Below, one piece after another: positions 2,489 through 41,416 of a DNA stretch of 64,000 bases; position 1 is the stretch's first letter, and every line of letters begins with the position of its first letter. The notes beneath the pieces are model-generated. The model was not told the origin of the DNA. It saw only the letters and a list, made by a program, of their open reading frames with translations, and did no database searches. The stretch is from Trypanosoma brucei (taxonomy: Eukaryota), in contig CP000071.1 of the NCBI GenBank assembly GCA_000002445.1, forward strand, positions 704,001 to 768,000, in the 5' to 3' direction. The position numbers were made by a program, and so were the translations under genes.

Positions 2489-2860
2489 AAAGTAATCGAG
2501 TCGGAGCCCGGACGTGTTAGGGTCGCAACAAAACCCGTAATGATTCTGAAGCCCCTGTGCCTTTGAGTTCGCTTTGGCTATTTCGCTTTCACTCCTTCCC
2601 CAGCTGGCAGTGATATATGTTCCCCCACCACCATATCTGTCGTCATGTCTGCACGCTGTCTGTCCTATTACCCCTGTTTAACCTCCGCCTGTTTGACAGA
2701 CTCTTCTTTAATGATGTTCCAGTATCGCCAATTATAATAGCAACAATAATATGCCTTTCCTCTTCGTTTCCCTTCTATATACAAGGATGCACGGAAAAGT
2801 AGTCACGGAAAGAATCGCAGTGTGTCGCGAGTCCTCATACCGCCTTTGCCAGGGGAAATA

Positions 2861-5800
2861 ATGGATGAAGTTGGTGCTCTGACCGTCCAAGATGTTTTAA
2901 CGGTGTGGCTTTGCGACCTTCCGCTTAAGACGACCCTAAAGGATGCACTATCAGGAGTGACACAACTTACAGGTGAAGAGAATATTAACCAGATACTGAG
3001 GTTCCACCCGCCGCATGCCAGTGCGCTGACGCAGTCTGGGGAGTGCAAAGGAATGCTTTCGCTGGTCGGTGAAAAAATCATTAAGGCGGTTGCCTCACAA
3101 TATGCATTACTAAGCTTCCCAGTAGGGGACACCTACAAACTAACCAACGCCACGCGCGTCCTTATATCCAACGAAACCTTCGGAACTGTACTGAAGCAAT
3201 ACACTGGCCCAACTTTCGGTGAGCGTGAAATGTTCACGCGCTTCCTTGCACTTTCCTTGTATGGACACGGGGTGCGGGTTGCCTGCATGTTGCTTCTGCC
3301 GGTGTTCAGGGCGACTCTGCTTGCTAACCAATACGCCATCGATCTACCTGCTGTATTAAACTCCCTCGTACCATGCGCATCTTTTTCTCGTCGGAACCTC
3401 GGGGAAAAGCTTGAGATGCTGCGGGGAGAGCTTGAGAAACGGGGTGTAGTTGTTAAGAGAGTCGTGGAGTCGGGCCCTTGTGGATGGGGTGGGTGTGAAC
3501 GATACACCGTGGAGGTGTTGTATGGCGGGGAGCTGTCGCGGTGCGAGAAGGGAAAGGTGCTGAGTGAGTTTTATCATATTGTCATGGAGGAAGCGAAGAA
3601 AACTATAGCTAACACAGAGGTCAAAAAGCCAAGGACCGTAACTTTCGAACCTGAGCACCTCAAGATGTGGATGCATAATTTGCGTTTCCTGCTGCGCCTC
3701 AGTGACAGGTACAGAGATGAGTTTGACGACAACACGCTTCAGTCGATAAAGCAAAGCGCCGGTTGGATACCGATCAGCGAAGTTCAACAGCTGCTTGAAG
3801 CCCAAGTAACCAGGTCAAACAGGCAGCAGCCACCTGGGCGCGATTGGATATGTGAGCTTGTGAAAAGGCACGATCTCCTGGGGCGATTCCAGGTAGGAAC
3901 CTGTGACGTAGAGGGAAGTGAGTTCGAGGGGCTACAGTGCGCGCGTGCTCTTTACGGTCACGAGGGGCGCAATCTGCTGATGAAGAGTGTATTTGACTCG
4001 TTCAGCACCATCCGTGATCCTGGTGGTCGACCCTCCACTGGATGGATGCGCATTGATGGAAAAAGGATGAAGTTGGTGAGCAAAGACAAAGGTTATTCGC
4101 TACATGACAGCATACCGCATGTCACTATCCATTCGACCGAAAGCCTTCACGCTTTTCAGTGGTATCGCCTAAAAAAACCGTTAGAGGAACAGTATGACGA
4201 AATATTGTCGTCGCGGAAGCCGCTGTACTTTGCGGAGTTTCGTCTTCACGATGCCTTAAATGACGATAGGATGCTAGTGAGGGAATTAAAGGGCATTGGC
4301 GCTGTTCCGCCACAATGGGTCGTTTTTACAGAGCATAATAGAGATGATGACCACCAGAGGAGCACTTTGGTTATTCCGGAAAATTACTTCACTGGAAAGG
4401 TAGCGGTGTTGTGTACGAATGCCGAGGATGTAGCGACCGAAGGCATGATTGACACAAAGGATCGACAGACCCCTGAAGATGAGGAACTTCTAATCGTCTA
4501 CAAAACCTGGCTACTGTCAGCAGATACACAAAACTCCGGTGACAGCAAAGATGGTGAGGAGAACCTGTCTCCACGCCACAGGCTGCCCGCCCACCATACC
4601 TCAACCGGTGCTACTAGCAGTGATGACAAAGGGACGACTTCGGTTGGAGCACACGATTGTGTGGTGATGGACCAGGCAGAGCAGCCCAGCGTACCGACTG
4701 CAGACTATATGGAGATGCTTCTGGATGAGGAGAAGAGAAAGATAGAGCTTTTCGAAAATACAAACACGTACGCCACTTTCGTAGCCTTTCCCAAGTACAA
4801 TCTTCATGGTGCTCAGATCCAAAACCGCTCCAAGGGCATTGCAGCATTTAAGACATGGATACAGGAACGGGGGTTGAAGTACTCTCGTTGGCGTACCGGA
4901 GAGAATGACCAGGAGGAAACATATGAGGTGCGCAAACCGCGCAACTGGAGTGCTGAGTTCGTGGAGTGTATAGCAGGAGAGCTGGGACTTACTCACATGC
5001 CTGACAAAACACTTCTCAAGTGGGCAACTACACGGGAGTGTGAGGATAAGGAACAGAACTATGAAATATTGGAATTTATCGGCGATGCCATAATGGATTT
5101 TATAGTGGTATCAGACAGCTTTCTTCTGGGGGAGCCCTGGCACAAGGATGTTAATACCAAACTGTGCTGCAACGAAGTACTAGCCACACTCATTCCACCC
5201 GGACTAAGCGAGGAACTCTCGAGAGTTTATGACGAGGTTCATTACAAGGTTAAAGCAGACATGGTAGAGAGCATTCTGGGAGCAGTGTATCAAAGCGGGA
5301 TGGGGCTTGATGAAGTGCGGAAGCAGCTACGAAGGTTTTTCAGGTGGATCCCCGATATTATCATGGATGTTAAGAACTTGTGTAACTCCACTGTCGAGGC
5401 ACTTCGTGCCGCCGAGAGAGTGTGCCCGTACCTTCATCCGAATGAAGAAGCACTTGACCAGTTATTCAAGTATGATTGTGAATCACTCATTGACGAGGAA
5501 TTCTTTAGTATGTTTGGATGTGTGGATCGCAAACGTTTTGATGCTCGGGGGGCGAGCCACTACGCATTGACACCATTTCACCGGATCCAAGACAAAATGT
5601 TCGCAACACACTTCACCACAGGTTCGTGCTACTCGTACCGTTATGTTCCCTCTATTGATACTCCATCCATATTCAACAGAATTCTTTCCGCATTTTCAGC
5701 TGGATCTATTGCTTTTGTAAATGAACTTGTTACCGAGGATACGCATGTAACAATCGATTTCGATGGTGCCAGTGTCCACGCACACGGTGCTCTGCGCCTC

Positions 5801-7807
5801 ATTTGGAGTTGGTTTATTGGCAAATTCCCCTCAAAATCGTCTATGTTTCTTCTAGACTGCTCAGGAATGTCAGTGGTCACAAACAGGTTAAAGTATTCGT
5901 ACCACATCCACTTTCCACAAGCGGTGACAACTCTAAGCAAATCGAAGTCCTTGGTGGAAGAGCTCCAGTCTTATGTCGTTAAATGCGTGGGTGCGGGCAG
6001 TTTGTTGGGTGACATTGTCGGGTTCCATTGGAAGGAAGGTGAGGGTAACCAAGAAAGGGAAGCGGCCGTAGCGGGACGCGTGATATTGTGCACCAAATTA
6101 TTGCATCAAAGGCTACGCGAAGCCGGGGGGAGAGTTGATGCGAAGTTCTCCGCGTACATGGATTTACAGAGCATCCTTGCACTTGGGCGGACGTGTCGTG
6201 AGATACGTCATGCAACACTCAGCTACCTGTGCGAGAAATTGCATCCAAAGGAACCTTGGGGTTTTGTTGTGATGGGTTGGTCGCGGCATCCCGTCGGCCA
6301 GACCAGCGAACGAGAGCCCCAGTTTGTGCTTGTGCGGACGCTATGGGCCTCTCAACAAGAGAAAGACTACATTGGTACGTTGATTCTTTTTCCCACGGAA
6401 AGTTTGAGTGACACAACCGATGAAACGAGCTCTGTCTGGAAGGCAGTTGTGCGGAAAGTGAAGGAAAAGGAGTGTAAGCCAAAGGAGTTCTTCCTTGAAG
6501 TCGTCAAGTCGAGTCGGGAACAGTGCATTTTCTCTTCGGCTTATTGGGAGCGAGTTATTGATAGCAGTCTACATAGCAGCAGGAAGTTGAGAATGTACTT
6601 GAATGACAAGTTCGATGTGAAGTATGGCCAGGAGTTCCGACCACTTTTTCTCGAAAGACTGGTCAACTCCAGTCAAGAAGTGAGGACAGTGACACCCAAG
6701 GAGAGCAACGTGTCTCGCTTTGTCAGGAGCCAGGAAATGAAGGCTTCAGCAAAAGACAACGGTGAGGAAGAGTACCCGGTTGAGGTTGCACATGGGTCAA
6801 CGCTCCGCCTTGTTTCCCTCCGATGCCCAGGGTACCGCGATGTGTATGGTAAGCTTTGGAACGCGTGGTCAGTAGGAAACAACAGCGACGATACATTTGT
6901 CAGCATCGAGCTCGGCACTCCGGTGGACGACTTGCTACCAGTTTTCGGCGCTGAATATAAAGAGGACGAAATCCTTTCAACGGAATGGACCCGTTTCGTG
7001 GAAGGCGCTTTTGGGCTGCAGCCGAGTGTAGAAACTCTGGGTGGTGGCAGCAGCGAACAGAAAACAGCTGCTTTGCAGCCTGCATACTGGATTTACGACC
7101 CTAAGTTAGGTCAGGCCAACTTTTGCATCGCTGGTGAAGTCGCCTTCTTCATCAGGCCATGTACGTGTCTGTTGGAGGGTCTAACGACACAGGGAGGAAT
7201 GAAACAAATGGTACAATACATTGTACCGACAGTTAAGTTAGAAGACTTGCCGACAAGGGAGTGGATGCGGTCGTATCCTTCAAATTGTTTTCCGCTCTTC
7301 CTAGCACCACGAAAAGGAAGTTGCTTCCAGCCCGCAGGTGAACCACATCCGGTGGTGGCATCTAACGACGGTCAGACAATTACGGTTCAAGCCCCGGTCA
7401 CAGCGGCTGCTGTTACACGTGTCCGTTCTAAGGTCATTGAAGTAACACTCAACAGCAGCACCCAAAGGCCCGTGGACTTTGAACAACTCTACAAGGCGAT
7501 GGATGATGTGTTCAGTGGGTCGTATGGCCCATCCCTTTTTGTCACGTCTGATATGGCGATTTTTTCGGTTTTACTAGACCGCTTCCCATGTGTTGTGACT
7601 CCTGATTATTTCAAGTCTTCAGTGTCGGAGGACTATACAATCCATAACGGCCGCACCTTTCACTACATCTTTATTATGGACAATGCGTGCGACCACTACC
7701 AACACACAAAGGTTTCCACAGGCCTGCTGGAACTGCTAGACAAGGAAGTCGGTATGATATTAGTGACGAGTGCAACTATACAAAAATTTTTTCGCACAAA
7801 CCGCTGA
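2861..7807 (+). CDS. DCL1: Dicer-like RNase III domain protein (DCL1-like), 1648 aa from the first ATG
   Basis: Canonical RNase III signature 'NYEILEFIGDAIMDFIV', then about 70 aa later 'KADMVESILGAVYQSGMG', so the E/D and D-x-x-E catalytic positions are present. The ORF track starts at GTG 2822; the first ATG at 2861 gives 1648 aa, the length I recall for T. brucei DCL1. A protein this large with an RNase III domain in trypanosomes is expected to be the cytoplasmic Dicer. Confidence 0.7.
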   Translation: MDEVGALTVQDVLTVWLCDLPLKTTLKDALSGVTQLTGEENINQILRFHPPHASALTQSGECKGMLSLVGEKIIKAVASQYALLSFPVGDTYKLTNATRVLISNETFGTVLKQYTGPTFGEREMFTRFLALSLYGHGVRVACMLLLPVFRATLLANQYAIDLPAVLNSLVPCASFSRRNLGEKLEMLRGELEKRGVVVKRVVESGPCGWGGCERYTVEVLYGGELSRCEKGKVLSEFYHIVMEEAKKTIANTEVKKPRTVTFEPEHLKMWMHNLRFLLRLSDRYRDEFDDNTLQSIKQSAGWIPISEVQQLLEAQVTRSNRQQPPGRDWICELVKRHDLLGRFQVGTCDVEGSEFEGLQCARALYGHEGRNLLMKSVFDSFSTIRDPGGRPSTGWMRIDGKRMKLVSKDKGYSLHDSIPHVTIHSTESLHAFQWYRLKKPLEEQYDEILSSRKPLYFAEFRLHDALNDDRMLVRELKGIGAVPPQWVVFTEHNRDDDHQRSTLVIPENYFTGKVAVLCTNAEDVATEGMIDTKDRQTPEDEELLIVYKTWLLSADTQNSGDSKDGEENLSPRHRLPAHHTSTGATSSDDKGTTSVGAHDCVVMDQAEQPSVPTADYMEMLLDEEKRKIELFENTNTYATFVAFPKYNLHGAQIQNRSKGIAAFKTWIQERGLKYSRWRTGENDQEETYEVRKPRNWSAEFVECIAGELGLTHMPDKTLLKWATTRECEDKEQNYEILEFIGDAIMDFIVVSDSFLLGEPWHKDVNTKLCCNEVLATLIPPGLSEELSRVYDEVHYKVKADMVESILGAVYQSGMGLDEVRKQLRRFFRWIPDIIMDVKNLCNSTVEALRAAERVCPYLHPNEEALDQLFKYDCESLIDEEFFSMFGCVDRKRFDARGASHYALTPFHRIQDKMFATHFTTGSCYSYRYVPSIDTPSIFNRILSAFSAGSIAFVNELVTEDTHVTIDFDGASVHAHGALRLIWSWFIGKFPSKSSMFLLDCSGMSVVTNRLKYSYHIHFPQAVTTLSKSKSLVEELQSYVVKCVGAGSLLGDIVGFHWKEGEGNQEREAAVAGRVILCTKLLHQRLREAGGRVDAKFSAYMDLQSILALGRTCREIRHATLSYLCEKLHPKEPWGFVVMGWSRHPVGQTSEREPQFVLVRTLWASQQEKDYIGTLILFPTESLSDTTDETSSVWKAVVRKVKEKECKPKEFFLEVVKSSREQCIFSSAYWERVIDSSLHSSRKLRMYLNDKFDVKYGQEFRPLFLERLVNSSQEVRTVTPKESNVSRFVRSQEMKASAKDNGEEEYPVEVAHGSTLRLVSLRCPGYRDVYGKLWNAWSVGNNSDDTFVSIELGTPVDDLLPVFGAEYKEDEILSTEWTRFVEGAFGLQPSVETLGGGSSEQKTAALQPAYWIYDPKLGQANFCIAGEVAFFIRPCTCLLEGLTTQGGMKQMVQYIVPTVKLEDLPTREWMRSYPSNCFPLFLAPRKGSCFQPAGEPHPVVASNDGQTITVQAPVTAAAVTRVRSKVIEVTLNSSTQRPVDFEQLYKAMDDVFSGSYGPSLFVTSDMAIFSVLLDRFPCVVTPDYFKSSVSEDYTIHNGRTFHYIFIMDNACDHYQHTKVSTGLLELLDKEVGMILVTSATIQKFFRTNR

Positions 7808-8590: not shown

Positions 8591-9070
8591 TCACCTCACT
8601 TGAAACGATCATATGGGCTGTTTTTTCCAAGAAGCAACGGATGCCGGTAACGGCCTGCAGCCATCTTTACACCGCCGGGGGTGGAGGGTGACTTGCATTG
8701 CAGAACGAAGAGAGCAGTTACGGATGGGCGTGATGTTTGTCAGTTGTCCTTTCTCCTTAACTCTTCGGGGAGTTTACATTTCTTCGGGCAGCGGCAATAT
8801 TGTGTTCACCACTGTGTGTGCACCGGAGCCAGTAAGTAACAACTTTGGGATGGATCATTGTTTCCCATCATTCAAACCGTATAGGTAACCTGTCGCGCAT
8901 AAGATGCCTTTTCTTTTTTTCGCTTCGTTGTGGTTCTCTTCTCTTTATGATCATTATTTCAATCCAACTCTTTTGTATTCATCTTTCGTGATAGCCCTTA
9001 TTGTTGCCCTTGTCACAAGGTGTATACATTTTTTTAAAGAAAATATTTTTGTTCAATTAGCAGCCAGGAT

Positions 9071-12000
9071 ATGCACTCGGAATTGAAAGCCTATGCTGTT
9101 CTTGTTGCTTTTACCCTCCTTGGAGAGCTTGGTCCCTTTCGAGGCGCGTACAGCTCCGTCGAGGACGAAGTAGCGGCATCGCATTCCCTCCAAGAGGTTC
9201 TTGATTTCCCAACTGTATCATATTATGACTCACTCGTAGGAGAGCCTTTAACGGGAGGGCACCACCGTGGTATCGTTGATATGTTTTCCGGTAGCTCCAC
9301 TGAGTGCTTCAACGGAGGTGTGCCCCCGACGAATGGGGATTCGAACTGCACCTGTCCCGCGCGAAGCAAATTTTCAGGTCTTAAGTGTGAGATGTGCCAG
9401 ACAGATGGTTCGTGTGATTCCATCGCAGGTCCGCAAAGTGTGTGCGAGAGGAGGCTAGCAATTTGGGGATCAAACAAGCAGTTCGAGTGCTCATTTAACA
9501 CGCCATTCTTCATTAAGCAAATGGGTGGCGGCCGCGATGTCGAGGCCCTCGTGACTCTCAATTGCTCAACACCCGATGGCACCGCCTTTCATGAGAGTAA
9601 CTCCGGTACCTGCGAGATGACATTGTTCCGGGTGGAACCAAAGCACGAATATGTAGATCCATTTTTTAGTTGTTCGGTGGAACAGTGCACGATGCACCTC
9701 GAGGAAATCAAAACGAACAAGGCAAATAAAACACCAACCAACTCAAACATCATCTCGAAGGCGGGCCTCATTGCATGGCGGGTGCTCATTGTCGCATTGT
9801 GCCTGCTACTGGCGATGCTGCAGTGCGTTTCACCCAAGGTGGGTCGCGGACGAACGGCGAAGCTTTTGTATGTGCTAGCTTGCCTGTTGGTAGCGGTGAC
9901 ATTACTTTTTATACTCGTGATGGTTCTCAACATGCATCAGGGGACACCGGAACTCAATGCCGTGTACGAGTGTAATAAAACACATTGCGACTGCTCGGAG
10001 GATCCACCGAAGGAGTATGGACCATTTTGCTCAGGAACGGTTATGAAAAAATTTATACTTCCGCAGATCAAAAACTCTATCAAGATAGTTTGTAACTTGC
10101 AGGATAAGACGTGCAGGCTGACGCTAAAGGACGTTAAAATCATTATTGACTTAAACTGCACAGCCAGTGAGTGCACAAATAAAAGGAAGTTTCCCAACGG
10201 ACCGTCGCTGCCGGTACCGGCAGATGATAAGGCACAACGGGCACTACTCACTTTCATTGCCCTCGGTTTTTTGGTGTTGTTGGTGCTGTTTGGTTTGCAT
10301 GTTTTGTGGGTCCTTAGGAGGACGCAGAAAAGAAAGGCCGAATTCGTTGATAGGTTTGGACTCCCAGAGTTGTGGACTCAAGAAGGAGAAGAAGGTGTGC
10401 CAGAAACGCGTTGCAACGGCCAGGGGTGGGGGGTTGCAACGCAACGGCAGCGGCGGCACGAGGGAGGTGCAGGGGGCTTGACTACAGCACGAAGCGCAAT
10501 GTCCATCGGCGAAGCCGGTGGATCAGCGCAGAGAAGTTGTAGTGGTGATATGCCCAGCTTAAGTGAATCCGAGAGGCACTTCACCAGCAACACTAACCGA
10601 CATGACAAGAAGGATTTCATCCGTGGGGTGACAAAGTCTCCCCTCAAACTACAACTGACTGATTTGGACTACAAGCTTGAGTCCTCTTGCTTTTCCAGCA
10701 ACAATAACGATGCATCACAACATATACTGCAGCAAGTAAACTTCTCTGTGAGGTCAGGAGATGTGCTTGCAATCATTGGCCCCTCAGGAGCTGGGAAAAC
10801 GAGCTTGCTAGACCTTCTGTCGGCACGGAGGAAGCAAGGACGTGTCTTTGGAGAGATGACAATAAACAACACCCCGCTAGTCGGTGCCTCCAATGAGGTT
10901 ACGGAACAGTATCGTAACATCATTGGTTACGTCTCCCAGGAAGATACGCTGATTCCAGCCCTGACAGTATACGAAACCATCAAGTACGCCGCCCGGTTGA
11001 AGCTACCTCAGGCGTTCTCCAGCGAAAGTATCAACGGGATTGTAGACCGTATGATTGAAGCGTTGAGATTGACTCGTTGTAAGGACACAGTCATTGGTGA
11101 TGGAACCAAGCTGCGTGGTGTTAGCGGAGGAGAGAAGCGGCGAGTCTCAATTGCCGTAGAGCTATTAGCCAACCCGCGTATCCTCTTCCTTGACGAACCA
11201 ACAAGCGGTCTTGATGCTGTCAGCGCCAAACATGTCATCGATGCTGTCGTTCAGCTTGCAAAGGAGTCACCTATGCGGGCATACGCACCGCATTACTTCG
11301 CGTTCAGGCCCATTGTCATTTTCAGTATACATCAACCTTCACAGGAAATTTACGAGCTCTGTGATAAAATTTTGCTTCTTTCACGCGGTATGAGTATCTA
11401 TTGTGGTCCCGCCAGCTGTGCTGCGGAGACACTTGAGGCACGCGTCCAACGGGTGATGGGAGGCGTCCAGACAATCCCACGCCTTGCCGACAACCCGAAC
11501 CACGCAGAGTATCTGATGAAGCTCGAGGAAATTGTCGACGATGTGGCACGCGTGGAACTTCAGAGGGAGAACACGGCACAGATGCTTTCAAGAGACGAGA
11601 CATCATCAGGAATGCGTCACGAAGAGCAAGCCATAATCAGAGGGGACATCATCCTCAAGACAACTTTTGGCTTCCGCAGGTATTATGCGAATGTGTACCA
11701 GCAAGTTGGGCTGCTAACGTCGCGTGCAGCTCGTTCTCTGCTTACCTCTTCTCATCTGATTGTCTGCCACGCTGCAGTTACGGCATCGGTCAGCACCCTC
11801 ATGATGATCTTATATCACGAGGAGGGGCTGGATCTCCCAGGAGCCCTTAACCGTGCGGGGTCCGTCACGTTTCTTCTGTTGGTTGTTTCATTTGCATCAC
11901 TAAGCTGCCTTGAGCATCTGGTCACAGAGCGGAAGCTGTTCGCAGTGGAGCGCGAAAACGGGTATTACACCACTCTGCCGTATCTCCTGTCGAAGATAAT

Positions 12001-12547
12001 TGTCGACATCATACCGCTCCGAGTTCTACCGACGTTGGTGATGGCAGCGCTCATCTATGTGCCCATGGGGCTTCGGGGGGACAGTGGCATACACTTATTC
12101 TGGTTCATCATCATTGTGGCACTGTTTTCAGTCTGCATTACACTGATTGTAATGTGTGTGGGAGTTGTTACTGGTTCATTTGGTTCCGCTGCCCTTTTGA
12201 GCAGCGTCGTCATCCTATGGAACTTCGTTTTTGGGGGTTTGCTCGTGCAATCAACAACAGTCCCCGCGGCACTTCGACCGTTCCAGGCAGCCTCGCCTTT
12301 CTTTCTTGCCTTTGAATCTCTATTGGTGAATGAACTTGATGGGCAGGATTGTACCTTCGCTCCGACAGACGCAACGGGAAAGCCATCGTCGACAAATGTA
12401 CCAATTTTATGTGTGCAGTACTTGACCAACATGGGCCTCACACCCGCACGCTTTACCAGGGATGTTGGGCAGCTTGCGGTAATGGTGCTCGTGCTACTGT
12501 GCTTGGCGTGGCTACTTCTGTTCCAATTCACTACTGTCGCACGTTGA
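9071..12547 (+). CDS. ABCG-family half transporter (NBD-TMD) with a long N-terminal signal peptide, Cys-rich ectodomain and three extra TM segments, 1158 aa
   Basis: Walker A 'GPSGAGKTSLLD', Q-loop 'GYVSQED', ABC signature 'VSGGEKRRVSIA', Walker B 'ILFLDEPTSGLD' and H-loop 'FSIHQPS', followed by a hydrophobic block of about 6 helices, which is the ABCG (reverse) topology. Residues 1 to about 450 carry a signal-peptide-like N-terminus, Cys-rich segments with NxT/S sites and three hydrophobic segments. Confidence 0.85.
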   Translation: MHSELKAYAVLVAFTLLGELGPFRGAYSSVEDEVAASHSLQEVLDFPTVSYYDSLVGEPLTGGHHRGIVDMFSGSSTECFNGGVPPTNGDSNCTCPARSKFSGLKCEMCQTDGSCDSIAGPQSVCERRLAIWGSNKQFECSFNTPFFIKQMGGGRDVEALVTLNCSTPDGTAFHESNSGTCEMTLFRVEPKHEYVDPFFSCSVEQCTMHLEEIKTNKANKTPTNSNIISKAGLIAWRVLIVALCLLLAMLQCVSPKVGRGRTAKLLYVLACLLVAVTLLFILVMVLNMHQGTPELNAVYECNKTHCDCSEDPPKEYGPFCSGTVMKKFILPQIKNSIKIVCNLQDKTCRLTLKDVKIIIDLNCTASECTNKRKFPNGPSLPVPADDKAQRALLTFIALGFLVLLVLFGLHVLWVLRRTQKRKAEFVDRFGLPELWTQEGEEGVPETRCNGQGWGVATQRQRRHEGGAGGLTTARSAMSIGEAGGSAQRSCSGDMPSLSESERHFTSNTNRHDKKDFIRGVTKSPLKLQLTDLDYKLESSCFSSNNNDASQHILQQVNFSVRSGDVLAIIGPSGAGKTSLLDLLSARRKQGRVFGEMTINNTPLVGASNEVTEQYRNIIGYVSQEDTLIPALTVYETIKYAARLKLPQAFSSESINGIVDRMIEALRLTRCKDTVIGDGTKLRGVSGGEKRRVSIAVELLANPRILFLDEPTSGLDAVSAKHVIDAVVQLAKESPMRAYAPHYFAFRPIVIFSIHQPSQEIYELCDKILLLSRGMSIYCGPASCAAETLEARVQRVMGGVQTIPRLADNPNHAEYLMKLEEIVDDVARVELQRENTAQMLSRDETSSGMRHEEQAIIRGDIILKTTFGFRRYYANVYQQVGLLTSRAARSLLTSSHLIVCHAAVTASVSTLMMILYHEEGLDLPGALNRAGSVTFLLLVVSFASLSCLEHLVTERKLFAVERENGYYTTLPYLLSKIIVDIIPLRVLPTLVMAALIYVPMGLRGDSGIHLFWFIIIVALFSVCITLIVMCVGVVTGSFGSAALLSSVVILWNFVFGGLLVQSTTVPAALRPFQAASPFFLAFESLLVNELDGQDCTFAPTDATGKPSSTNVPILCVQYLTNMGLTPARFTRDVGQLAVMVLVLLCLAWLLLFQFTTVAR

Positions 12548-13377
12548 AGGTAGTTAGTTGAGGGAGGGAGAGGAAGAAGAGCAGACTGCAGAGCAGTTGA
12601 TAGTTAATTCATCAAACCACAAGGAGGACCAGAGGGATGTATGAAGTCTGTGGGGTGTATAATCTAGTGTAGCAGTGCGTGTCGAGCGTGGAAACACATC
12701 CACTTATTCCTTCTTTTCCCACAAGGATATATATCCACTCATAGTTTCTTTTTTCCCTTACGCGGTGTCAGGCATGTAAGTAGATCTCTGTTGAGCATCG
12801 TGTGATGCGAAAAGTTGTGTTTGAAAAGAGGAATGAGAAGGACGGAAAAGGGGTGAATCGTTCAGACAGTAGTAGGGGGTGTAGGGGAACTGGAACGGAG
12901 CTGAGAGGTTTAAAAATTCTTTCTACTCCGTTGTTGCTTTCTCGTCGGTACCACTGCCGTTAAAGCTTGCGACGCAAAGCTTGTGGTTATCTGTACGCGT
13001 GCGTGGGCATTAATACGACTGTTGGTGCTACCATTGTTCATAGGGCCCGCGGCCACTTTGAACTTGATCATTGTTTGCTTTATCCAGTTACACTTAGTTC
13101 GGGAATACGACAAAAAAAAAGAAGTGGGAAAAAGCTGCGTGTGCGTTTGTGCTTGCGTGCGTCGTCTATTCCGCGAGCACCGCCTCTACAAGGGAGAGGA
13201 TTGCTGGAGTTTACACGCATCGCTTGACTTCAATTTGCTTATTCACATCTTTACTTTTGGTGTCTCACTGTCTTCCTTGTTCTGCGCAGACTATTCATCC
13301 TTCTCCCTTGTGTGTGGATCAAACACTGGATACGACTGGCACGTATGTTTTCAATTTTGCGTTTTTTGCTTGCTCGC

Positions 13378-38920: not shown

Positions 38921-39394
38921 TTGTTGATTCAATCTCCAGTCAGAATAGGAAGCTGGGCAATTCACCACTCGGAAAAAAAGTACGACGAACATGAAGAGTC
39001 GGTGGCCAAAAAAAAAAAAGTAGTTGGGGTGCGGTGTATTGGTGGCTGAAACATGTATTTCAAAATATACTTAAACTTCACCCGCAGTTTATGGCCAAAC
39101 TACCACCACCGCCACCAAGCGCACATTTTCCCCGTCTTTGTCTCAAATTTGCTGATTTTTTTTCAGTTTCGACAAGGAGGCAAATAAGCGTAATAGGACC
39201 GCTGCGGCACACAGAAGGCACCATAAACGTGGCGTACAGGATCATAGTAACGCAAAGGCACGCTCGCTTTAAAGTAGTGCTATAGCCCTAAGAACAGAGA
39301 GCTTTCGTGATAAGGGGGGGGGAGAGAATCGGGTAACGTAACAAGACGTAATTTTTTGTATTTCGTCCAAATCGCGGGTGGTGATAAATTCAAC

Positions 39395-41416
39395 ATGCGT
39401 GACACAGGTCGCTGCAGCGGCCATAATGATGACGTAGTAGACCCCGTAACAAGCAACGGTGCTATGTCGCATGTCGGCCCTGATCTTGCACACCGTCAGG
39501 CACTTTACGAGGAGTCGGTTCGTGACCCCGTGGCCTTCTGGGAACAGGCCGCCGCTGACTTCCATTGGGAAAGAACTTGGCCCAAGGACAAATCGCCCCT
39601 GGAGTACAATTTCCACAAAAGCAATGGCAGCATTTTCGTCAAATGGTTCGACGGGGCAGAGTCGAACATGTGCTACAACGCTCTCGACCGGCATCTACCG
39701 AAACATAAGGACCGCGTGTGCTACCACTGGGAAGGTAATGATGAGGGAGAGAGTCGCGATGTGACGTACGGTGAGATGTTCGAGGAAGTCGTGCGTATCG
39801 CCGCAGTGCTGAAGCACCGCTACAATGTCAAGAAGGGCGACGTGGTCACCATATATCTACCGATGATACCCTTCGCCGCGCAGGTGATGCTCGCAGTGGC
39901 ACGCCTCGGCGCCGTCACCTCAGTCGTGTTCGCTGGCTTTTCGTCGCAGGCTGTTGCGAGCCGCCTGACAGACGCGAGGAGTAAACTCATCATCACTGCG
40001 GACAGCTTCTGGCGTGGCACCAAAACACTCCTACTGAAAGAGCTCAGTGACGCCGCGCTCGCCATTTGTGAGGCAGAGGGCCACAACGTCCAGTGCCTCG
40101 TGTACGATCGGTCCAAACGGGAAAATGTTCCCATGACAGAGGGCCGCGATGCGTGGTACAGCGACGTTGTAGAGACCCTCACGGCAAGTGAGCTCGCGGA
40201 TTGCCCCATTGTATGGATTGGGGCGGAGGATCCGCTTTTCCTCTTGTACACCTCTGGCAGCACTGGTAAACCCAAGGCAATCTTGCATACGCTGGGAGGT
40301 TACATGGTGTACGCCGGAGTCACCTTTAAGTACAGCTTTGACTACCACGAAAGTGATGTGTCGTTTTGTACAGCAGATATCGGGTGGATCACTGGCCACT
40401 CGTACGCACTGTATGGTCCGATGCTGAATGCCGCCACATCGGTACTGTTTGAGGGCATGCCAACGCACCCAACTCCGTCCCGCTGGTGGGATTTGGTAGA
40501 CAAGTACCGCGTTACGATCTTCTACACGGCTCCAACGGCTATACGGGCACTCATGCAGTGCGGTGATGAACATCTGCAGTCCACAACGCGGGGGACGCTG
40601 CGCATTCTTGGTAGCGTAGGGGAACCCATCAACGCAGAGGCGTGGCAGTGGTTTTATGAGGTGGTTGGTAAGCGCAGGGCGGACGTAATTGACACGTGGT
40701 GGCAAACGGAGACGGGTGGCCACCTCATTACCCCACTTCCTGGATGCACACCAATGAAGGCCGGAAGCGCCACCCTTCCTTTCTTTGGAATTGTTCCGGC
40801 GTTGCTTCATCCGACGACGAATGCAGTTGTTGAGGGTGAAGGTGAGGGACTTCTTGCTATGCAGACCCCCTGGCCAGGTATCGCACGCACCATCTTTGGT
40901 GACCACAACCGCTACGAGCAGGCATATTTTGCTGTGGATGGCTTTTATCTGACGGGTGATGGGGCTCGTCGGGACAAGGATGGTTACTACTGGATTACGG
41001 GCCGCGTGGATGACGTACTAAACGTCAGTGGTCATCGTATAGGAACGAGCGAGGTGGAGGAAGCGGTGAACAGCCATCCCGATGTCGCAGAAAGCGCTGC
41101 TGTTGGCATCCCACATGACGTGAAGGGTGAGTGCATCTACGTGTTTGTTACGTTCAACAACAATGTGACTGTGGACGCTACGTTGCTGAAAAGGGTGAGA
41201 GAAACAGTTCGCCGAGTCATTGGTCCATTCGCTGCCCCTGATTACGTCCAGGCAGCGCAGTGTGGGTTACCCAAGACACGCTCGGGAAAGATTATGCGTC
41301 GCATCCTTCGTAAGATTGCGTCTGGGTTGCATGAAGAGTTGGGTGACACCTCAACGCTCTTGGATCCGAGTGTTGTGCAAAACCTCATAGAAGGGAGGAA
41401 GCAAACAGTGGGGTGA
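39395..41416 (+). CDS. ACS: acetyl-CoA synthetase (acetate-CoA ligase, AMP-forming), about 673 aa
   Basis: Colinear ACS hallmarks: 'DPVAFWEQAA', 'TIYLPMIPFAAQVMLAVARLGAVTSVVF', AMP-binding motif 'LLYTSGSTGKPKAI', 'WWQTETGG', 'YLTGDGARRDKDGYYWITGRVDDVLNVSGHRIGTSEVEE' and C-terminal 'LPKTRSGKIMRRILRKIA'. The track start is TTG 39356; the first ATGs are 39395 and 39464, and the 5' boundary is uncertain between them. Confidence 0.9.
   Translation: MRDTGRCSGHNDDVVDPVTSNGAMSHVGPDLAHRQALYEESVRDPVAFWEQAAADFHWERTWPKDKSPLEYNFHKSNGSIFVKWFDGAESNMCYNALDRHLPKHKDRVCYHWEGNDEGESRDVTYGEMFEEVVRIAAVLKHRYNVKKGDVVTIYLPMIPFAAQVMLAVARLGAVTSVVFAGFSSQAVASRLTDARSKLIITADSFWRGTKTLLLKELSDAALAICEAEGHNVQCLVYDRSKRENVPMTEGRDAWYSDVVETLTASELADCPIVWIGAEDPLFLLYTSGSTGKPKAILHTLGGYMVYAGVTFKYSFDYHESDVSFCTADIGWITGHSYALYGPMLNAATSVLFEGMPTHPTPSRWWDLVDKYRVTIFYTAPTAIRALMQCGDEHLQSTTRGTLRILGSVGEPINAEAWQWFYEVVGKRRADVIDTWWQTETGGHLITPLPGCTPMKAGSATLPFFGIVPALLHPTTNAVVEGEGEGLLAMQTPWPGIARTIFGDHNRYEQAYFAVDGFYLTGDGARRDKDGYYWITGRVDDVLNVSGHRIGTSEVEEAVNSHPDVAESAAVGIPHDVKGECIYVFVTFNNNVTVDATLLKRVRETVRRVIGPFAAPDYVQAAQCGLPKTRSGKIMRRILRKIASGLHEELGDTSTLLDPSVVQNLIEGRKQTVG

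Follow-up and report, generated by a model that had tools for sequence, protein, structure and literature searches.

Why should a half-transporter of the ABCG subfamily carry several hundred residues ahead of the nucleotide-binding domain (NBD) with which such proteins usually begin? The question is raised by an open reading frame (ORF) in a 64,000-nucleotide stretch of the Trypanosoma brucei genome (GenBank assembly GCA_000002445.1, contig CP000071.1, positions 704,001 to 768,000, forward strand), referred to here as the window. A preliminary description, made from the sequence letters, had read the product as an ABCG half-transporter with an atypical extension of roughly 450 amino acids (aa) containing two cysteine-rich modules, the second with NxT sites, two closely spaced membrane helices and a third helix before the NBD. 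It had proposed that the chain runs out-in-out-in and had pointed to EGF- or TNFR-like folds and to a comparison with kinetoplastid orthologues. Most of that reading held. However, the part preceding the ABCG2-like core is longer, about 530 aa, as a variable, disordered cytosolic linker of about 110 aa (aa 419 to 530) follows the third helix. The cysteine-rich regions are indeed rich in cysteine and extracytoplasmic, but they are not two modules; a membrane hairpin is inserted into a single domain, and each region is one half of it.

The extension contains 23 cysteines within aa 79 to 368, distributed over an EGF-like motif, a segment that we call M1, a pair of membrane helices and a second segment, M2. 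In aligned homologues, the 12 cysteines of the EGF-like motif and M1 and the 8 of M2 were kept in 87 to 100% of the sequences, and the three cysteines lying within helices were not conserved. The strings quoted in the preliminary description were found within these segments (CTCPARSKF from aa 93, CNKTHCDCSED from aa 301, and NCTASECTNKRKF at aa 362 to 374). Conserved residues other than cysteine included R187, D196, F198, and F199 in M1, and Y299, a DPP motif, an ILP motif and ASEC in M2. The relationship between the two segments was seen in four relatives, P0029, P0030, P0036, and P0041, in which M1 runs straight into M2 and no hydrophobic segment intervenes. In P0041 one helix and then an ABCG core come after the joined segments; P0036 is a 236-aa secreted-type protein, a stand-alone copy of the ectodomain without a transporter.

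An AlphaFold model of aa 70 to 430, made with a 35-sequence alignment, agreed with a split domain and was confident (predicted local distance difference test score [pLDDT], 90.2; predicted template modeling score, 0.80). A first run with 5 sequences had given a poor pLDDT of 53 and was set aside. In the model, the helical hairpin lies between long strands: helix 1 carries on from the final one of M1 (aa 195 to 213), and helix 2 leads into the initial one of M2 (aa 294 to 308). Since the strands run into both helices, the hairpin would replace the short turn of the hairpin-less relatives, and as modeled it appears to be a lineage-specific insertion into a pair of long strands. The whole is a glycosylatable, disulfide-rich, extracytoplasmic alpha/beta ectodomain of about 250 residues with probably ten disulfides, tethered to the membrane at three points. 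Alignment of M1 with M2 by hhalign gave a weak similarity (E value, 8e-4; probability, 25%) in a strand-Cys-turn-Cys-strand unit, which hints at a possible internal duplication. As a separate observation, two very long homologues from Logan contigs, P0011 (2184 aa) and P0013 (1916 aa), have charged low-complexity insertions of about 190 to 250 residues between M1 and the hairpin and more insertions inside M2 and the NBD. Every conserved cysteine is retained in both, and the M1-hairpin junction thus evidently tolerates very large insertions.

A hydropathy scan found exactly three strong hydrophobic helices upstream of the NBD (aa 226 to 258, 260 to 292, and 387 to 418), the number and spacing expected from the earlier reading. 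The extreme N terminus resembles a signal peptide, with K6, the h-region AYAVLVAFTLLG and a small-residue c-region visible by eye; its cleavage site is putative. From the N terminus, the chain is predicted to run from the lumen or outside to the inside, out again, and back in, which places the NBD in the cytosol. That topology is supported because the conserved cysteines, even in number, sit in the two outer segments alone, and because all five NxS/T sequons (N92, N164, N219, N302, and N362) fall in segments predicted to be noncytosolic. It is further supported because the hairpin turn, SPKVGRGRTAK, and the stretch after helix 3, with RRTQKRK and a conserved EF motif, are rich in lysine and arginine. 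In addition, M1 and M2 must lie on the same side of the membrane, because the four hairpin-less relatives join them directly. A short proline-rich stalk precedes helix 3, and that helix holds a conserved histidine, H410.

It was necessary to consider whether the extension is translated at all. An annotation artefact would place the real start at Met477 or Met494 and leave the upstream 450 codons untranslated or in a separate gene, and this would give a protein that starts with its NBD as canonical ABCGs do. A T. vivax entry, P0009, does annotate the extension as a separate 509-aa hypothetical protein; past helix 3 that entry continues into unrelated sequence and not an NBD, and the split could be a frameshift, an assembly error, a genuine split or a pseudogene. 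Against an artefact, the frame in T. brucei is single and uninterrupted, the ATG at 9071 is its first in-frame methionine, and an in-frame stop lies 12 codons upstream. The extension is fused to the core in at least 4 other species and in about 25 more distant clusters. Across the full extension, identity is 34 to 47% with orthologues of 1166 to 1245 aa from T. grayi, T. theileri, T. rangeli, and a Logan contig. Full-length identity was 46 to 58% over 93 to 100% of the length for T. grayi, T. rangeli, and P0005; for T. theileri the best local alignment gave 67% over 59% of the length, and the full alignment gave 56%. By region, identity among orthologues was 40 to 57% in the cysteine-rich parts, 26 to 46% in the helical hairpin, 20 to 28% in the linker and 64 to 74% in the ABCG core.

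A closely related strain provided a second line of evidence. The Logan contig L004 (ERR7929163), 99.5% identical, differs from the window at 18 nucleotides. Over aa 1 to 386 there were 0 nonsynonymous and 3 synonymous changes, compared with 5 and 5 over aa 387 to 530, and the 6 amino acid differences in the protein comprised 4 in the linker, 1 in helix 3, and 1 in the NBD. A tract scan found no polypyrimidine tract within the first 1630 nucleotides of the ORF (9071 to 10700) and four in the upstream spacer, where a candidate trans-splice acceptor region for the full-length mRNA lies. Fused orthologues, protein-like conservation that includes the cysteines, the synonymous bias and the absence of an internal tract, together with the confident AlphaFold model, establish that the approximately 530 N-terminal residues are real coding sequence. 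Conservation and the lack of an internal tract make a start at Met477 or Met494 very unlikely, and we regard the artefact as extremely improbable and effectively refuted. As an aside, L004 covers window positions 9021 to 12853; it starts two bases past an AG that lies behind a pyrimidine tract and ends about 300 nucleotides after the stop codon. Its ends look mRNA-like, which is suggestive at most, as neither a spliced leader nor a poly(A) stretch is present.

The C-terminal 620 residues (approximately aa 539 to 1158) make up a complete ABCG half-transporter. Both expected Pfam domains were found well above threshold, ABC_tran at aa 553 to 712 (102 bits; cutoff, 25) and ABC2_membrane at aa 877 to 1089 (91.5 bits; cutoff, 26.9), in the ABCG order with the NBD N-terminal to the membrane domain. 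Residues 539 to 1151 aligned end to end with residues 50 to 649 of human ABCG2 (E value, 4e-66). The Walker A motif, GPSGAGKT, lies at aa 570 to 577, where it had been placed at about aa 575, and is followed by the Q-loop (Q623), the signature VSGGEKRR (aa 684 to 691), a Walker B of LDEPTSGLD with the catalytic glutamate E709, and the H-loop (H754). All of these motifs are intact and invariant among orthologues, and for that reason, together with the ABCG2 alignment, the core is catalytically complete and apparently active. The last external loop of the membrane domain contains conserved cysteines C1094 and C1114; a cysteine pair there, the full set of ATPase motifs and the NBD-then-TMD order (TMD, transmembrane domain) are shared with human ABCG2, ABCG1, and ABCG5/G8 and with Drosophila White. 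Unlike those proteins, in which nothing comparable to the helices or the ectodomain precedes the cytosolic NBD, the T. brucei polypeptide starts with three helices and an ectodomain, about 530 added residues in all. This is a variation on the ABCG plan and no ground for exclusion from the subfamily. A side feature of the NBD is a family-specific insert, SPMRAYAPHYFAFRPIV, at aa 731 to 750 (about 11261 to 11320), just ahead of the H-loop and invariant among orthologues.

Table 1. Features of the ABCG-type gene and its upstream spacer, with amino acid (aa) and window positions
Feature	aa	Window positions	Strand	Evidence or content
Complete ORF, 1158 aa plus stop; ABCG5-type half-transporter with N-terminal accessory region		9071..12547	+	
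Signal-peptide-like N terminus	1-28	9071..9154	+	Read from sequence; hydrophobic N terminus recurs in orthologues and many distant homologues
Poorly conserved spacer	29-75	9155..9295	+	11 to 20% identity to orthologues; pLDDT <50 in 5-sequence model
EGF-like Cys motif	76-110	9296..9400	+	C79, C93, C95, C106, C109; family-profile matches
M1, first half of ectodomain	111-215	9401..9715	+	C115, C125, C140, C165, C181, C201, C206
Two-helix membrane hairpin between M1 and M2	228-290	9752..9940	+	Hydropathy, homologue mapping, AlphaFold model
M2, second half of ectodomain	293-372	9947..10186	+	C301, C306, C308, C320, C341, C348, C363, C368
Third membrane helix	387-418	10229..10324	+	Hydropathy, homologue mapping, AlphaFold model
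Variable low-complexity cytosolic linker	419-530	10325..10660	+	20 to 28% identity and large length variation in orthologues
NBD	531-800	10661..11470	+	Pfam, orthologue alignment, ABCG2 alignment
ABCG-type membrane domain	865-1158	11663..12544	+	Pfam, alignments, hydropathy
Candidate trans-splice acceptor region		8905..9019	+	Tract 8905-8926, T-rich to about 8990; AG at 8993-8994 and 9018-9019

A profile of the extension was searched against 1.84 billion cluster-representative proteins and retrieved 36 cluster representatives, 25 of them at an E value of 1e-10 or below. A word-index search with the extension alone had returned no relatives, a false negative, as the full-length and profile searches found them. 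When the order of elements in the homologues was mapped by sub-profiles and hydropathy, nearly all full-length members showed a hydrophobic N terminus, EGF-like repeats, M1, two helices, M2, one helix, a linker, the NBD and the TMD. Chance does not account for such a recurrence in about 25 clusters. The named members are from Leishmania martiniquensis (P0010, 1257 aa), T. vivax, Papus ankaliazontas (Prokinetoplastina), Sulcionema specki (Diplonemea), and the EukProt entry Hpha; the remaining homologues are environmental. Conservation of the extension among kinetoplastid orthologues was thus borne out, with alignments in Trypanosoma species, L. martiniquensis and the prokinetoplastid. With members in kinetoplastids, a prokinetoplastid and a diplonemid, the architecture is at least as old as the kinetoplastid-diplonemid ancestor. 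The L. martiniquensis protein has the same order from the EGF-like motif to the TMD. In contrast to Trypanosoma, Leishmania and many distant relatives have an extra cysteine-rich EGF-like insert before M1, with the pattern C..RQCPNS.GG.G...C..C.

The identity of the gene could be approached from its surroundings. Immediately upstream is an ORF of 1661 aa (2822 to 7807, plus strand) in which an RNase III domain accompanies domains specific to kinetoplastid Dicers (La_HTH_kDCL, KptA_kDCL, and PPL4). Its product is probably DCL1, a cytoplasmic Dicer-like protein, the gene for which we take to be Tb927.8.2370. The transporter itself recurs as an identical protein in the Trypanozoon assembly GCA_001457755.2. 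In a published review table, the T. brucei ABCG5 is Tb927.8.2380, on chromosome 8, with a length of exactly 1158 aa; the T. cruzi ABCG5 has 1170 to 1171 aa (TcCLB.504425.70), and all other trypanosomatid ABCGs have 646 to 700 aa. The 1158-aa length, the Dicer-like neighbor and the identical protein in the other assembly lead us to read the gene as, most likely, the Trypanozoon orthologue of trypanosomatid ABCG5, Tb927.8.2380. It would thereby fall in one orthologous group with the Leishmania protein LABCG5, with lengths of 1158 to 1257 aa.

LABCG5 has been described as an intracellular transporter that is required for using haem freed from endocytosed haemoglobin. An L. mexicana LABCG5 null mutant was viable as a promastigote and showed reduced fitness in macrophages and mice. 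These data on haem salvage and amastigote fitness come from Leishmania alone. For T. brucei, the TrypTag source data list Tb927.8.2380 under "endocytic" only, and the gene was a low-ranking match, with three RNA interference (RNAi) fragments, in an RNAi screen for human serum resistance in which the strong hits were endolysosomal. If the gene is Tb927.8.2380, the endocytic listing favors a luminal ectodomain, which is then more likely to lie within the endocytic system than on the cell surface.

We asked whether the ectodomain resembles any known module. Pfam found nothing above threshold in aa 1 to 550 of the window protein and no EGF match. Family profiles did detect an EGF-like resemblance over aa 76 to 110, with PDB matches to WIF-1 (E value, 1.7e-5) and the EGF domain of C9 (E value, 0.024), and Pfam EGF_TEN matched 6 of 35 family members. 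The shared motif is CxNGG...CxC...FxGxxCxxC at aa 79 to 109. However, the resemblance is confined to about the first 35 residues, in which the window protein has five cysteines against the six of the EGF pattern, and M1 and M2 are not EGF-like. The suggestion of EGF-like folds applies at most to that short motif, and no TNFR-like cysteine-rich domain was matched in Pfam, PDB sequence or fold searches. M1 and M2 matched no Pfam family and no PDB sequence, and Foldseek gave nothing significant against the PDB (best E value, 0.027; TM-score, about 0.1) or against viral models.

EGF-like motifs commonly mediate protein-protein contacts, and this is one reason to consider the ectodomain as a luminal sensor or receptor, in which a bound partner or ligand would control the ATPase by way of helix 3 and the cytosolic linker. 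The conserved H410 and the EF motif just beyond helix 3 could transmit such a signal, and the linker has the length and variability often seen in regulatory ones. However, no partner is known, and at 20 to 28% identity, with large insertions in some species, the linker is an unlikely carrier of a defined allosteric path. We consider a sensor improbable.

Two other groups of ABC transporters with extra domains are informative. Large extracytoplasmic domains occur on ABC exporters of the ABCA subfamily and in bacterial MacB and LolCDE, where they receive or pass on hydrophobic cargo. Theirs lie between helices of the core TMD, in contrast to the separate N-terminal unit with its own helices found here, and Foldseek found no fold match to them. 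The second group has an N-terminal membrane module, TMD0, in front of a full core, with an extracytoplasmic N terminus as in the T. brucei protein; it includes ABCC proteins (MRP1 and SUR1), TAP1/2, and ABCB6/ABCB9. A TMD0 differs in being a bundle of 4 to 5 helices with short loops and no folded ectodomain, attached to type IV (TMD-NBD) transporters. The T. brucei extension has three helices on a type V (ABCG) core and gave no Pfam or PDB sequence match to known TMD0 domains, and we use the comparison as a functional analogy only. In ABCB6 and ABCB9, TMD0 is linked to endolysosomal targeting, and transport does not depend on the N-terminal extra domains of ABCB6, ABCB9/TAPL, TAP1/2, and ABCC proteins, which act in targeting or partner binding.

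By that analogy, the extension might be an accessory module for sorting, stability or assembly with no role in substrate handling, for instance by targeting to the endosome or lysosome, by shielding the transporter from luminal proteases with glycans and disulfides, or by dimerization. The endocytic location given by TrypTag would suit such a module, as would the five sequons and 20 conserved cysteines and the weak conservation of the helix sequences (22 to 46% identity). Sorting signals, however, are usually short cytosolic motifs, and the extension is instead dominated by a fold of about 250 residues with surface residues (R187, D196, F198, F199, Y299, DPP, and ILP) kept from trypanosomes to diplonemids. 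That conservation suggests a specific interaction surface, and relatives retain the domain even where the hairpin is missing. We therefore think a purely accessory role somewhat unlikely, though it is the alternative to which we give most weight.

We consider it probable, though well short of certain, that the protein is an ABCG5 orthologue whose ectodomain binds or hands over hydrophobic cargo. The transporter would sit in endocytic membranes with its ectodomain facing the lumen of the endosome or lysosome, beside the exit of the ABCG translocation path. There, the ectodomain may bind or pass on the cargo of the transporter, which would be haem or another porphyrin, if LABCG5 is a guide, or a lipid. 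Through the ectodomain, the ATP-driven transport of the core would be linked to capture or release in the lumen, and the hairpin probably fixes the ectodomain flat against the membrane next to the core. Several points weigh against this reading. ABCG transporters are exporters, a direction that is hard to square with carrying haem out of the lysosome lumen into the cytosol. The assignment to Tb927.8.2380 is one made by length, synteny and a near-relative assembly. Lastly, no promastigote phenotype resulted when the L. mexicana gene was targeted with two CRISPR base-editing guides.

A bolder proposal would meet the question of direction. M1 and M2 may constitute an undescribed luminal cargo-binding domain of Euglenozoa, comparable to the fused substrate-binding domains of bacterial ABC importers, that captures haem, or some other hydrophobic nutrient set free in the lysosome, and feeds it to an ABCG core working, exceptionally, from lumen to cytosol. 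This is a long shot. If true, an importer-like ABCG would explain how transporters of the LABCG5 type sustain haem salvage in parasites that are auxotrophic for haem.

Trypanosomatids do not synthesize haem, and LABCG5 is among the few proteins implicated in its exit from the endolysosome after haemoglobin endocytosis. A conserved and confidently modeled luminal domain with no solved relative makes that step open to experiment, with the hairpin-less relatives as a guide. The ABCG family also gains a new architecture, in which three helices accompany an N-terminal ectodomain, and the protein illustrates clearly how a membrane hairpin can be inserted within an extracellular domain. Host ABCGs lack this domain, which occurs in a protein that contributes to amastigote fitness, and it is thus a possible parasite-specific target. 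In the accessible literature, a body that did not include the primary LABCG5 study or the 2006 inventory of Leishmania ABC proteins, we found no description of the anatomy of the extension. The gene and its extra length were known already, as was functional work on its orthologue; what is new, as far as could be established, is the split ectodomain with its inserted hairpin. To the same extent, the spread of this ectodomain through Euglenozoa and further afield, and the absence of any relative with a solved structure, are undescribed.

In the wider window, 20 of the 21 ORFs that reach 250 aa are on the plus strand, the cumulative GC skew rises steadily, and the spacers are of the polypyrimidine-rich trypanosome type. 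The sole minus-strand ORF of that size (40031 to 40906) is nested in a longer plus-strand ORF (39356 to 41416). The one-sided distribution of ORFs and the spacers fit a polycistronic unit, and the window looks like part of one kinetoplastid polycistronic transcription unit.

The contigs that encode two of the hairpin-less relatives, P0036 (L002, 5001 to 5711) and P0041 (L003, 3147 to 5930), are environmental, compact and apparently intron-free. The genes beside them are of eukaryotic type, with JmjC, TPR, ubiquitin, Rad60-SLD, and IBR domains, and the contigs may have come from a giant virus or from a protist with a small genome.

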